This document shows, one piece after another, positions 15,293-55,451 of a stretch of 64,000 bases of DNA. Location: assembly GCA_000146465.1 (NCBI GenBank), contig CP001950.1; one strand, 5' to 3'. Numbering within the stretch: the stretch's first letter is position 1; the number at the start of each line of letters is the position of its first letter. The translations under genes were made by a program, and so were the position numbers. The notes below the pieces were generated by a model. It saw only the letters and a list, made by a program, of their open reading frames with translations. It was not told the DNA's origin and searched no databases.

Positions 15293-15470
15293 TTATTTGG
15301 GATTGAAATCACCCATCCTATTTCTCCCCAGTCTTAAGATCCTTTTCTCTCTCAAGGCTCCAAGGCTTTGTGTTTTGCTTACGACCCTAAAAGAAAAACA
15401 ACATTTCGAGAGACTTTCTAGGTGCTTGAGAATAGATCTGAGATTAAAAACAAAAATGTTACCACCCCCA

Positions 15471-16928
15471 ATGTCATGTAAGTGAAGATAAATATCAAAG
15501 CTAATTTTAGACAACCTTCTGCATATCGTTAAGCCTTTGGTGCCGTACATACCAGATGTCCAATCACCATCGAGAACAATCACCTTCCATGAAAGATTTA
15601 TCTGGACAACACTTGCAATTCTGATATATTTGATCTCATCCCAGGTTCCTTTGTTTGGAATAATCTCAAATGACGCTGCAGATCCCTTACAATGGATGAG
15701 AGCCATGATGGCATCCAACAGAGGGACACTTATGGATCTTGGAACAAGCCCTGTAGTTACATCCAGCCTTATAATGCAGTTCCTGACGATGTCCGAGATA
15801 CTAAAGGTTGACTGGTCTATCAAGGAAGACAAGAATCTTCACAATGCAACTCAAAGACTTATATCACTCATAATGACGGTTGGCCAAGCATTTGTACAGG
15901 TGTATACGGGCTTTTATGGCAGTCCAAAGAGTCTTGGTACAATATACTGCCTTCTTCTTGTTGTCCAGCTCATATTCTCGGGTATTATAATAATTCTCCT
16001 CGATGAGCTCCTTCAGAAGGGATATGGCCTTGGAAATGGAGTTAACCTGTTCATTGCAACCAATGTTTGCGAGAGCATTGTCTGGAAAGCATTTAGTCCA
16101 AAGGTACTTTTCACAGGTCGTGGAATAGAATTTGAAGGATCAGTAATTGCATTATTTCACCTTCTTGTGGTAAGAAAAAACAAATTTGCAGCAATATACG
16201 AGGCTTTCTTCAGACAAAACCTTCCGAATCTCTTTTCATTACTCTCAACTGTGTTTCTGTTTGCATTTGTTATATATCTCCAAGGAATGAGAGTAGAGCT
16301 TCCAACAGAATCTTCCCAGGTCAGAGGACATGTAGCCAAATTCCCTATCAAGTTGCTGTACACATCTACCATGCCGATAATTGCTCAAAACTATATAGTT
16401 GGACATATTTCATCTATTTCTTCCTTCCTTTACAAAAGATGGCCCCAGTATCTCTTTGTCCGCATACTTGGCGTTTGGAACACATCCAAGACTGGAAGGT
16501 ACACTCCAATAAGCGGTCTTAGTTATTATATTACATCTCCAGAGTCCCTTCTGGAGGGCCTAAAGGATCCGCTTCGATTTGTCATCTATCTTTCCATTAT
16601 GCTTCTGACATCGGCCATCCTTAGTACATCATGGCTCGAGTTAAACGAGCTATCCCCTGAAAAAGCCGCTCAGAAACTCAAGGAGTCTCGTATGAGGCTG
16701 AAGGGTGTAAGAGAAACAAACACAGTTCACGTGCTTTCCAGATACATTCCAACGGCTGCATTTCTTGGAGGGATTCTCACATCTATGGTTGTCATAATGT
16801 CTAATCTTTTTGACACCATCGGGAGCGGCACAAACATCTTCTTGGCCACGTCGATTGTAAATCAGTACCTTGAAATGTTTGCCAAAGAGTCAATCCAAAA
16901 GAACAGTGAAATAGGTTTTATCGAGTAA
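15471..16928 (+). CDS. SEC61: Sec61 alpha translocon subunit, two exons (exon1 15471..15477; intron 15478..15510; exon2 15511..16928)
   Basis: Track ORF 15537 starts with TTG GTG and there is no in-frame ATG back to a stop. With ATGTCAT|GTAAGT...CTAATTTTAG|ACAACC spliced, the N-terminus becomes MSYNLLHIVKPLVPYIPDVQSPSRTITFHERFIWT. This aligns without gaps to the canonical [35 protein letters not shown]. The rest of the protein is unmistakably Sec61 alpha. Confidence 0.8.
15478..15510 (+). other. 33-nt spliceosomal intron (GTAAGT ... CTAATTTTAG), phase 1, 7 nt after the start codon
   Basis: See the Sec61 entry. Same architecture as the RPL39 intron at 51027..51057. Confidence 0.7.
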
Positions 16929-16989
16929 AGTTATTTCTATGGCCCTACAAGCTTTTTTGGAACAATAAAAATTTACCTTCAATTCTTGA

Positions 16990-17985
16990 ATGATAGCAAT
17001 GGGATTAGAGGGAAGTGCCAACAAGTTAGGCATAGGGATAATGAAGGACAACGAAATACTGGCAAACGAAAGACTCACCTACGCTCCTCCTCCAGGAGAG
17101 GGGTTTATCCCTGCCAAGACTGCAGAGCACCATCGCTCCAAAATTCTGGGTCTTATTGCCATGTCATTGGAGAAGGCCGGAATTAATCTTAACGACATCG
17201 ATATATTTTGCTATACAAAAGGACCGGGAATGGGCCAGCCTCTAGCAGTGGTGGCAACGGTTGCTAGGACAATGAGCTTGTACTGCAACAAGCCTCTTGT
17301 TCCTGTAAATCATTGCATAGGCCACATAGAAATGGGTAGGTTTATAACAAAAGCAAAAAATCCGGTTATTCTCTATGTTAGCGGAGGAAATACTCAGATT
17401 ATAGCATACTACAACAAAAGATATAAAATCTTTGGAGAGACATTAGACATAGCCGTTGGAAACTGCATAGATCGGTTTGCTAGAGCCCTCAAGCTTCCGA
17501 ACTTTCCTGCACCGGGTCTTAGTGTGGAAAGGTATGCAAGACTTGGAAAAAACTACATAGAGCTTCCTTATGTTGTGAAAGGAATGGATGTTTCGTTTTC
17601 GGGAATTCTATCGAATATAAAGAGTAAAATTGTGGACGATGAGCAGTTGAAGTACGATCTGTGTTATTCGCTTCAAGAAACAGTTTTCTCTGCACTGGTT
17701 GAGGTCACTGAAAGAGCAATGGCCTTTAGCAACTCCAAAGAAGTTTTAATAGTCGGAGGCGTTGGATGCAATCTGAGGCTTCAAGAAATGATGAACATAA
17801 TGGCAAGAGAACGTGGTGGAACTTGTTATGCAACCGACGAGAGATTTTGCATAGACAATGGGCTAATGATTGCCCATGCAGGAATGCTTATGGCCAAGAG
17901 CGGAGCTTCCTTCAGCCTAGATGAATGCTTCGTTACACAGAGATATAGGACTGACTCCATAGATGTAGTTTGGAGAGATGATTAA
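16990..17985 (+). CDS. KAE1: tRNA N6-adenosine threonylcarbamoyltransferase Kae1/OSGEP
   Basis: [17 protein letters not shown] ... HCIGHIEMG ... characteristic of Kae1/Gcp. ATG confirmed. Confidence 0.9.
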
Positions 17986-18015: not shown

Positions 18016-20406
18016 TTATAGTCTTGGTTTCCTTATCTTCCTGGGTAGCTCCACAGTTTCTTCTTTGTCTTCCTCAGGCTCAGTCCATTTTTCAAATCTA
18101 TCGTAGAGACTGCCCCCTAAAGAAATCTCCTTCTTATCTAGGATCCTGGCTCTTGAACTAAGGCTTCCAAGCAAATCGTACTCGAGGTTTTCTTCCCCGT
18201 ACACCTCACACCCCAAGCTCTTGTAGGCAGGATACTTCTGGGCTCCAAGTATCTCATTCCTATCTCTATAGTAGTCTCCTGCCTCTTCTAGAATCACTTG
18301 CGGGCTTATATCTGAACAACAATACATGTACTCTGCTCTTGTGCTAAGATGCTTATAAAACAAAACATATTGGCAGGGATTATCTTTAAGTGCACTAGAC
18401 GGATGGATTGCACATTTACGGAAGTTGCTTAAGGAAACATATCCCTTATTACTTCTTTTGGCTATGTTATAGTATATTGAAGATACAATACACCTTTGGA
18501 TTTGCTCTAGAGATCTTGCGCGGGATATTTCTATTCCTCTTCCTTTCAAGGTCATTAATACTGCCTTTTTGATTTCCATGGCCTTTTTTAGTGCATCCCC
18601 ATTAACTTTCACCTTGTTACACCATTCATTTCTATTTTTACTCGAAATGAATTCGTTAAATATGTTCAGAAGAGTTATGAAGTCACAACTCTGATGGTAT
18701 AGAGACGACGATTTATCGAAGTCTTTATCAAAAAGTCCATAAATACTGAGCATTCCAACTATGCTTGTTATTTCATCAACAACACCATAGTTTATGGAGT
18801 TTATAACCATCCGAGCAAGAGGAGGCTCTAGCTTTAATTCACTCATTTCTTCTCCACTTTTAGTGAGGAGGCCCTTCTGGCAAACCGCTCCTAAGCGATA
18901 AAGAAGAAATAAGGCATTATGAATCAACTCCCTTGAGAGACTATCAAGAAAATCAAATCCAAATATATCTTGAACACCATGCTTTAAGAGTAGAAGAATG
19001 ACATCGTGTATGTTTGTTCTCTGTATTTCTGGCACTGAAGAAGGGAGAAGATCATTCTCATAAGTACTTGCTGTATACATTCTGTAGCATACACCTGGCC
19101 TTGTTCTTCCTGCACGCCCTGCTCTTTGGTCTGCCCCTGCCCTGCTTACCGGAATCTTCACCAACGACTCTCCCGTATCATAATTGTAGATACTTATCTT
19201 TTGCAACCCTGTGTCTACAACATATCCAATGTTTGGGATGGTTAAGGATGTCTCGGCTATATTTGTAGAAACAATGCATCTTCTTACATTTCTTTCTCTC
19301 AGAAACACTTGACTCTGTGCCTCCTCCGAAAGTTGGCTGTAAAATGGGAGAGCCTTAAGATCCATTTCCCTTCCGTCCTCTTTTTCTTTACTCAAACGCT
19401 TATTCTGGGCATAGTGATTCACTATTCCCACAACACCTTCGACATCCTCTTTTCCCGTCATAAAAACTAGAATATCTCCTTCATCGCAATTCTCATGGAT
19501 ATAAAGGATCTTCTTAACCGCCCATTCGACATAGTCATCGACATTCACGCTCAAATATCGAATCTCAACAGGGAAACTTCTACCTTCGATATTGAAGACT
19601 GAACATCCAAAGTAATTGGAAAACTTCTGGGCTTCGATTGTGGCACTCATTATTACAAGCTTCAAATCTTTCCTTTCCTTCAAAACACATTTCAGTAGTC
19701 CCATGGATATATCCAGGTTTGTGCTTCTTTCATGTGCTTCGTCCAGTATCACTACAGAGTATTTCTTAAGTAGTTTGTCCCCTAGCAGCTCTTGAAGAAG
19801 AATTCCTTCGGTCATATATCTTATCTTAGTGTTCCGCGTCACTGTATTGTCAAATCTGATCGAATATCCTACAAGAGATCCCATGTCACTTCCCAGAGTG
19901 GATGCTAAATTCATTGCTGCAGCCCTTCTCGGCTGTGTGCATCCTATAATTCCCTTTTCTCCATATCCCTCTTGATAAAGATACTTGGGCACCAACGTGC
20001 TCTTCCCAGATCCTGTTTCTCCAACCAAAACCGTCACTTGATGTTCCCTTATGAATTTCATCAAATCGCTTCTAAAACTTTCGATAGGAAGCTTCTTTGG
20101 AATCTCTTGGGAGATTTCTTCACCTATCAATGGAATCGTATTGCTCCGAGGGTGCATATTCAAAAACACGCTTTCTCGCTTTGCCACTTTACCTATCTCC
20201 GTATCTGGCTTCTCTACTTCGACTCTATTCTTCAAAGTACTGTCAAGTATTTTTCTTCCCAGAAACTCATCTATGCTCTCTTTATATACCAGATCCGGAG
20301 CTAGATGATTGTCCTCATCAGAGTATGTCTCCTCCACACTCAGTCCGGCGGCTTTCATCTTCCTCATTTCCCATCTCTTGGTATCCCGATATTTACTGTA
20401 TCCCAT
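18016..20406 (-). CDS. DEAH-box ATP-dependent RNA helicase (Prp2/Prp16/Prp22/Prp43 family)
   Basis: Helicase motifs GETGSGKST, CTQPRRAAA, LDEAHER(S), MSATIEA, FMTGKEDV, STNIAETSLTIPNIGYVVDTG, plus a C-terminal HA2/OB region. Track start 20427 is GTG; the first ATG (MGYSKYRDTK) is at about 20406. Confidence 0.85.
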   Translation of the reverse strand: MGYSKYRDTKRWEMRKMKAAGLSVEETYSDEDNHLAPDLVYKESIDEFLGRKILDSTLKNRVEVEKPDTEIGKVAKRESVFLNMHPRSNTIPLIGEEISQEIPKKLPIESFRSDLMKFIREHQVTVLVGETGSGKSTLVPKYLYQEGYGEKGIIGCTQPRRAAAMNLASTLGSDMGSLVGYSIRFDNTVTRNTKIRYMTEGILLQELLGDKLLKKYSVVILDEAHERSTNLDISMGLLKCVLKERKDLKLVIMSATIEAQKFSNYFGCSVFNIEGRSFPVEIRYLSVNVDDYVEWAVKKILYIHENCDEGDILVFMTGKEDVEGVVGIVNHYAQNKRLSKEKEDGREMDLKALPFYSQLSEEAQSQVFLRERNVRRCIVSTNIAETSLTIPNIGYVVDTGLQKISIYNYDTGESLVKIPVSRAGADQRAGRAGRTRPGVCYRMYTASTYENDLLPSSVPEIQRTNIHDVILLLLKHGVQDIFGFDFLDSLSRELIHNALFLLYRLGAVCQKGLLTKSGEEMSELKLEPPLARMVINSINYGVVDEITSIVGMLSIYGLFDKDFDKSSSLYHQSCDFITLLNIFNEFISSKNRNEWCNKVKVNGDALKKAMEIKKAVLMTLKGRGIEISRARSLEQIQRCIVSSIYYNIAKRSNKGYVSLSNFRKCAIHPSSALKDNPCQYVLFYKHLSTRAEYMYCCSDISPQVILEEAGDYYRDRNEILGAQKYPAYKSLGCEVYGEENLEYDLLGSLSSRARILDKKEISLGGSLYDRFEKWTEPEEDKEETVELPRKIRKPRL

Positions 20407-20448
20407 AGACTTGGGTATGAAAATCACAATCTAAAAGACCATACATAT

Positions 20449-54614: not shown

Positions 54615-55451
54615 TCATAGCTGTTCACAATGGTGAAATAGTGCTTTAATCTCTTCCTCCCATAGCATCTTACACTCGTTGAGCTTCTCCATAACCTCAT
54701 TGTCTATAGAAACCCCAACTGTATTACTCCGCAAGCGGATCTTATTAACAAGATACACAATGTCTTCTACGGCACTTTCCTTGTCACCTAACATCACAAT
54801 CCCAAGACACATTGTGAAGTATTTGATCTCAAGATCTTTGTACATCTGCAAGAGCCTTGGCCTGTACCGTCCTACTCCAACCATTTCGTTCAACCATCTA
54901 TCTAACTCCTTCGGGGCCTCTAGAGGTATTTTCCTCACATATTCGTCCACCTCTTCGTCAATTCTATTCTCAATGTATTCATGGATCTTCAGGCCATTTG
55001 TCTCGTCGTATTCTTGGAGTTTCTTAAGAAGCTCTATCCTTGATACAGTCGAGGGTTTTCTTGTCTTTGAGTAAACACTCTCAAGGTGGTCTATCATCAT
55101 TAACCTAGGTTTTTCTCGTTTCAAGCCTAGGATGCACATACATTTAATGATCTGGTTTATTCTCTCCTTACTGTTGAATGCTATGCTTCTCTTGAACTCG
55201 CTGGTTAGAAACCCCTCGAGGTCCTTACACTTGTCTGCATCCGTGGTCAGTATCTCCAAAAGCATTTCAATGTTCTGAGTTTTCTTTGCTTCCTCAACAA
55301 TTCTCCTCACCTCTCTTTCTCTTCTTTCATGCATCAAGCGGGTGTGCTCCTTCTTCAGCTCGTACCATTTGTTAAGCTTGTTTACCAGAGATTCCATGGG
55401 CTTGCCTTCATGACTCCGAAAACAAGTATATAATCCATGTCTGCTTCCCAT
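54615..55451 (-). CDS. Hypothetical helical protein
   Basis: Track start 55562 is GTG with a spurious hydrophobic leader. The first ATGs are at about 55451 (MGSRHGL) and about 55397 (MESLVNKL). No family recognised. Confidence 0.35.
   Translation of the reverse strand: MGSRHGLYTCFRSHEGKPMESLVNKLNKWYELKKEHTRLMHERREREVRRIVEEAKKTQNIEMLLEILTTDADKCKDLEGFLTSEFKRSIAFNSKERINQIIKCMCILGLKREKPRLMMIDHLESVYSKTRKPSTVSRIELLKKLQEYDETNGLKIHEYIENRIDEEVDEYVRKIPLEAPKELDRWLNEMVGVGRYRPRLLQMYKDLEIKYFTMCLGIVMLGDKESAVEDIVYLVNKIRLRSNTVGVSIDNEVMEKLNECKMLWEEEIKALFHHCEQL

Follow-up and report, generated by a model that had tools for sequence, protein, structure and literature searches.

Sequence and comparative evidence for a short spliceosomal intron beside the start codon of the Sec61 alpha gene of Encephalitozoon intestinalis

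The Sec61 alpha gene analysed here raises the question of where its protein begins. Within the 64-kb stretch of DNA that was studied (hereafter, the window), the list of open reading frames begins this gene at position 15537, which is a TTG. It had been claimed from the sequence that the continuous frame offers no usable ATG, that it opens after a TAA at about 15489, and that its first codons are TTG GTG. This description is borne out: in the unspliced frame, TTG 15537 and GTG 15540 come first among the possible non-ATG starts, and the earliest in-frame ATG, at 15696 (MRAMM..., residue 65 of the full-length protein), is preceded by five out-of-frame ATGs. The original prediction had answered the question with a short 5'-proximal spliceosomal intron that joins an upstream start codon to the reading frame. 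Judged from sequence and comparison, Sec61 alpha almost certainly contains, directly behind coding nucleotide 7, a canonical 33-nt U2 spliceosomal intron of the Encephalitozoon type, and this intron is already annotated publicly.

A start codon set apart from its reading frame

Direct reading of the sequence places the Sec61 alpha start codon, ATG, at 15471-15473 on the plus strand. Exon 1 (15471..15477, +) consists of seven nucleotides, ATG TCA T, which specify Met, Ser and the first base of codon 3, and which are identical in all five close species compared (5/5). The predicted spliceosomal intron follows at 15478..15510 (+); it is 33 nt long, in phase 1, with 76% A+T, and has the sequence GTAAGTGAAGATAAATATCAAAGCTAATTTTAG. 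The coordinates originally assigned to the exon ATGTCAT and to the intron are all right. The intron starts with the 5' splice site GTAAGT (15478-15483, +), which is invariant in the five species, and has CTAATTTTAG at its 3' end; the branch-site-like CTAAT occupies 15501-15505 (+), its A at 15504 being the putative branch nucleotide, 6 nt before the last intron base, and the 3' splice site AG is at 15509-15510 (+). Exon 2 (15511..16928, +) supplies the remaining two bases of codon 3 and extends to the stop codon (16926-16928).

Excision of the intron in silico yields a 474-aa Sec61 alpha with the N-terminus MSYNLLHIVKPL and the fuller start MSYNLLHIVKPLVPYIPD. Without splicing, the frame translates as MSCK*R*ISKLILDNLLHIVKPLVP. 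Two stop codons within the intron are in frame, TGA at 15483-15485 and TAA at 15489-15491 (both +), so that retention of the intron disrupts the open reading frame and leaves MSCK* as the unspliced product. The statement that splicing restores the frame calls for a small correction. A full reading frame from an ATG is indeed obtained, but the frame was blocked and not shifted. Exons 1 and 2 share one genomic frame, as the intron of 33 nt corresponds to 11 codons, and hence splicing takes out the two in-frame stops and corrects no frameshift.

The identity of the gene is clear from the spliced product, which matches the Pfam families Plug_translocon (PF10559, residues 40-74, E = 2e-15) and SecY (PF00344, residues 75-455, E = 1e-61), as well as human SEC61A1 (8b6l_A, E = 4e-153; residues 2-466 versus 2-468). 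The SecY domain is thus accompanied by an N-terminal plug domain in a full-length protein that is colinear with solved Sec61 alpha structures, and 15471-16928 (+) is the gene for Sec61 alpha, the translocon channel. The alignment to the human protein runs from residue 2 to residue 2 and is gap-free over the first 100 residues, which upholds the earlier claim of a residue-for-residue match at the N-terminus when orthologues are aligned. An antisense open reading frame of 179 aa, initiated by TTG (15293-15832, -), covers the 5' region of Sec61 alpha and the intergenic spacer; given its overlap with the conserved coding part of Sec61, it is apparently a mechanical artefact. On the same strand as Sec61 alpha, the TsaD/Kae1 gene (16990-17985) follows directly 3', completing the region 15471-17985, and this adjacency is common to Encephalitozoon, Ordospora, Nosema bombycis, Vairimorpha necatrix and Spraguea lophii. 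Two genes downstream, 18016-20427 (-) encodes an 803-aa helicase, orthologues of which match the Pfam families DEAD, Helicase_C, HA2_C and OB_NTP_bind, a domain combination characteristic of the Prp2/16/22/43 type of DEAH-box helicase.

By its sequence, the Sec61 alpha intron is a member of the class of short Encephalitozoon-type spliceosomal introns. It combines GT-AG borders and the strict GTAAGT with a branch motif near the 3' splice site and a size inside the range of the class; its retention disrupts the reading frame, and it evolves in a non-coding mode. How often such an arrangement would arise by chance was assessed by searching both strands of the 64-kb window, and 100 shuffles, with the splice-signal pattern GTAAGT-N(8-38)-CTAAYTT-N(1-4)-AG. 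The window contains a single match on its two strands, exactly at 15478-15510, where 0.05 are expected, and at least one match occurred in 4 of the 100 shuffles. The looser pattern GTAAGT...TAAYTT likewise matches only the Sec61 alpha intron in the window. The sole match sits exactly at the site that needs a start codon. A relaxed scan of the whole window for 5' introns (donors GTA[AGT]G[TAG]; TAAY at most 16 nt from AG; an ATG at most 90 nt upstream; at least 100 codons downstream) returned about 20 candidates, and gave no second credible 5' intron in the window. The remaining candidates lie within continuous open reading frames or lead to short, unsupported products; the most suggestive of them, 55197-55228 (-), is located inside a continuous open reading frame of 315 aa.

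Conservation of the intron and the choice of start codon

The position of the intron and its splice signals are kept in about nine microsporidian loci, the window included, with the same exon 1 of 7 nt or one of 10 nt. The intron is 33 nt long in E. romaleae, E. hellem, E. cuniculi and Ordospora colligata, 34 nt in the uncultured relative SRR21023573, 32 nt in each of the uncultured relatives SRR29713749 and JGI 3300073837, 27 nt in S. lophii, and 25 nt in V. necatrix. These lengths (25, 27, 32, 33 and 34 nt) are not restricted to multiples of 3, and a segment whose length varies without regard to the frame is no coding insertion. In the alignment of five species, that is, the four Encephalitozoon species (E. 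intestinalis, E. romaleae, E. hellem and E. cuniculi) and O. colligata, CACCCCCAATGTCATGTAAGTGAA and CTAATTTTAG are invariant; 7/33 internal intron positions are variable, and the 5' splice site, the branch site and the AG are constant. The more distant species have CTAACTTTAG, CTAACTTTCCAG and AATAATTTAG at the place of CTAATTTTAG. N. bombycis lacks the intron, and its gene reads through ATG TCT TTT AAT (MSFN; ATGTCTTTTAAT), colinear with the spliced junction.

A further line of evidence comes from the first nucleotides of exon 2 (15511..15536, +), which lie 5' of every possible in-frame initiation codon of the unspliced frame. Among the five species, the eight codons of this stretch vary at 8/8 third, 0/8 second and 2/8 first positions, a substitution pattern which implies that the stretch is translated. 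As it can be translated only if an upstream ATG is spliced on to it, this coding signature supports splicing. In addition, about eight predicted Sec61 alpha proteins from other microsporidia, Anncaliia algerae among them, have M-x-C-K at their N-terminus, as expected when ATG NNN T|GT AAG is translated in a read-through of the same intron. These read-through starts suggest that the intron is widespread; on sequence evidence, it seems to be present across microsporidian clades. At the protein level, the Sec61 alpha sequences of Edhazardia, Trachipleistophora, Pseudoloma and Nematocida have full-length N-termini without the M-x-C-K signature.

The region directly 5' of the start codon (15440..15470, +) resembles a core promoter, in which a CCC-like motif (CCACCCCCA) comes after an A-rich, AAATTT-like stretch (GAGATTAAAAACAAAAATGTT); all five Encephalitozoon/Ordospora sequences share CACCCCCAATG unchanged. 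It should be noted that another ATG is present at 15456, within the A-rich signal and 5' of the CCC-like motif. A spliced transcript translated from this codon would give a protein of 479 aa starting with MLPPPMSYNLL..., and three species, E. intestinalis, E. romaleae and E. hellem, have this ATG in the same frame as ATG 15471. In E. cuniculi, however, a 1-nt deletion shifts it out of frame, and it is absent from Ordospora; moreover, additional residues of the MLPPP type are found in no orthologue, the human and fungal N-termini aligning from residue 2. In E. cuniculi, the CCC-like motif directly precedes start codons and 5'UTRs are shorter than 7 nt (Peyretaillade et al. 2009, PMC2803860), and an ATG on the far side of the motif does not fit this arrangement. 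We therefore regard initiation at 15456 as exceedingly unlikely. Since this ATG is not conserved and lies 5' of the CCC-like motif, the translation start is ATG 15471.

The other alternatives dispense with splicing. In one of them, the unspliced mRNA would be translated from the ATG at 15696 into a protein of 410 aa, as in one deposited annotation of E. cuniculi (UYI26690.1 / AGE96219.1), and the inefficient splicing reported for that species might be taken to favour it. This reading is very unlikely to be correct, because the highly conserved N-terminus of Sec61 is encoded in the 225 nt 5' of 15696, where the substitutions are of the coding type, and because the revised reference record, CAD26984.2, has 474 aa. 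The unspliced route to this Met would, moreover, pass the five out-of-frame ATGs first. A protein begun there would lack residues 1-64 altogether, and with them most of the plug domain (residues 40-74) and the Plug_translocon match; in the deposited 410-aa protein, a Pfam search leaves the plug domain undetected.

Alternatively, translation of an unspliced mRNA could begin at a non-AUG codon, TTG 15537 or GTG 15540, giving about 462 aa and rendering the intron-like sequence fortuitous. The mechanically defined open reading frame does start at TTG 15537, and gene callers assign products of 460-462 aa to relatives (four proteins). This possibility is hardly credible, though, given that the eight codons 5' of the TTG evolve as coding sequence, that the splice signals are invariant across genera while the intron length shifts regardless of the frame, and that the intronless N. 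bombycis gene encodes the complete N-terminus from an ATG. Programmed read-through or frameshifting in place of splicing was also considered and rejected, as the intron has two in-frame stops and its length differs between species in ways that do not preserve the frame. The proposal of a short 5'-proximal spliceosomal intron joining the start codon to the reading frame is, by contrast, supported by its conservation, by the alignment to the human protein, and by identity of the spliced product to a deposited protein (see below).

Under the spliced reading, transcription would start a few nucleotides 5' of ATG 15471, as suggested by the CCC-like motif together with the very short 5'UTRs that have been published. 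The sequence, comparative and database evidence points to a spliceosome that would recognise GTAAGT (15478) and CTAAT (15501-15505) and cut after the AG (15510). The T at 15477 would then be joined to the AC at 15511-15512, forming codon 3 (Tyr) and giving the product MSYNLLHIVKPL..., whereas translation of an unspliced transcript would terminate after MSCK. Since splicing in E. cuniculi is reported to be low, a substantial unspliced pool, which would encode only MSCK, is plausible.

Existing annotation and the orthologous gene models

The spliced 474-aa product is exactly identical to ADM12142.2, the 'protein transport protein Sec61 subunit alpha' of E. intestinalis ATCC 50506, and over 7458 nt the Sec61 locus differs from that of another E. 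intestinalis assembly at a single base; the window is thus E. intestinalis DNA. For E. intestinalis, E. romaleae (AFN83629.1) and E. hellem (AFM98907.1), the gene is annotated over 1458 nt and its product has 474 aa. Since 1458 nt equals a coding sequence of 1425 nt plus 33, a 33-nt intron is annotated in those three records. Similarly, the E. cuniculi DNA, when spliced at the homologous sites, yields CAD26984.2 exactly. The annotated Sec61 alpha introns of Encephalitozoon show the same 7-nt exon 1, the same length of 33 nt and the same GTAAGTGAA...CTAATTTTAG signals, without any difference, and they are thus the same feature. The literature also mentions a Sec61 intron: where Akiyoshi et al. 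2009 (PMC2607024) cite Wu et al. 2007, they refer to an E. cuniculi intron 'in the Sec61 gene' and do not name the subunit. Hence, the Sec61 alpha intron is not new, being annotated in public records and, according to that citation, published for Sec61 of E. cuniculi in 2007.

The intron also conforms to what has been described for E. cuniculi as a whole. This species has 37 introns of 22-76 nt, with GT-AG borders and strict motifs (Grisdale et al. 2013, PMC3629993), and every one of them introduces a stop codon or a frameshift (PMC3629993). The short introns reported by Katinka 2001, Lee et al. 2010 and Grisdale et al. 2013 likewise have GT-AG borders, GTAAGT, a branch motif shortly before the 3' splice site, lengths of 22-76 nt, a 5'-proximal position and in-frame stops. 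The Sec61 alpha intron differs from those of ribosomal-protein genes in its host gene, which is non-ribosomal. The original view that an intron is unusual for this class of gene was nevertheless overstated, considering the 2007 report of a Sec61 intron in E. cuniculi, as cited in PMC2607024, and the many non-ribosomal introns in PMC3629993: many of the 34-37 E. cuniculi introns are in non-ribosomal genes, and the 2010 survey of Lee et al. is described there as having found many such introns. Grisdale et al. 2013 also used RNA-seq to confirm splicing for every E. cuniculi intron annotated until then, Sec61 being unnamed in the main text, and found that splicing is inefficient, with 81% of junctions less than 50% spliced (PMC3629993). 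The main text of Whelan 2018 (PMC6349667), like that of Grisdale 2013, does not mention Sec61, and the supplements of Peyretaillade 2009 have no Sec61 or translocation entry.

For annotation, the outcome of this check is that the model which includes the 33-nt intron is correct. Models that begin at residue 65, at an internal codon or at a non-ATG codon leave out the N-terminal part of the protein, and the residue-65 model leaves out most of the plug as well. Several such models have been deposited. In the O. colligata assembly GCA_052575955.1, the gene is given as 462 aa from an internal ATG, the short intron having been missed (locus L005, 1432-1500), and in the E. cuniculi assembly CP091433.1 it is given as 410 aa from Met65 (locus L004, 1276-1500). 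The V. necatrix model uses another intron, of about 85 nt, and has 453 aa (locus L010, 1501-1600), and that of S. lophii reaches 482 aa by read-through (locus L011, 421-470). If the short intron is applied instead, the proteins of V. necatrix and O. colligata are full-length, with 473 and 474 aa, respectively. The finding is thereby of modest wider value, in that the gene models of O. colligata, V. necatrix, S. lophii, A. algerae and one E. cuniculi assembly overlook the intron or model it wrongly.

Possible origin of the intron

A comparison outside the microsporidia bears on the age of the intron. In the chytrid Spizellomyces punctatus (KQ257451.1; locus L012, 601-700), the first Sec61 alpha intron is at the identical position and in the identical phase as that in the window (15471-15512). 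Exon 1 of the chytrid gene is ATGTCGT, and the junction falls within codon 3 (Phe) of MSFRLLH, so that site and phase are the same as those of the microsporidian intron; exon 2 starts with TTCGC. The chytrid intron reads GTAAGG...TTTTTTGTAG, with GTAG at the 3' end. It differs in its length (69 nt versus 33 nt), its branch and 3' region are looser, and the gene contains further introns that the microsporidian genes lack.

Because the chytrid intron occupies the identical site, the microsporidian intron looks ancestral, and on this sequence comparison it was probably inherited rather than newly gained. Taken together with the M-x-C-K starts, the shared site suggests that an ancestral intron has been kept, miniaturised, and lost in some lineages. 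We lean slightly towards a wider reading, according to which this is an ancestral fungal Sec61 alpha intron that has remained at the same site (after nucleotide 7 of the coding sequence, phase 1) since the chytrid/microsporidian ancestor, has shrunk to 25-34 nt, has disappeared independently from several microsporidian lineages, N. bombycis among them, has been mis-modelled in several deposited genomes, and might be functional. The retention of an intron beside the start codon might reflect a function such as the control of translocon dosage via inefficient splicing. The match in position to the chytrid intron would make Sec61 alpha a clean example of an ancestral intron kept through extreme genome reduction.
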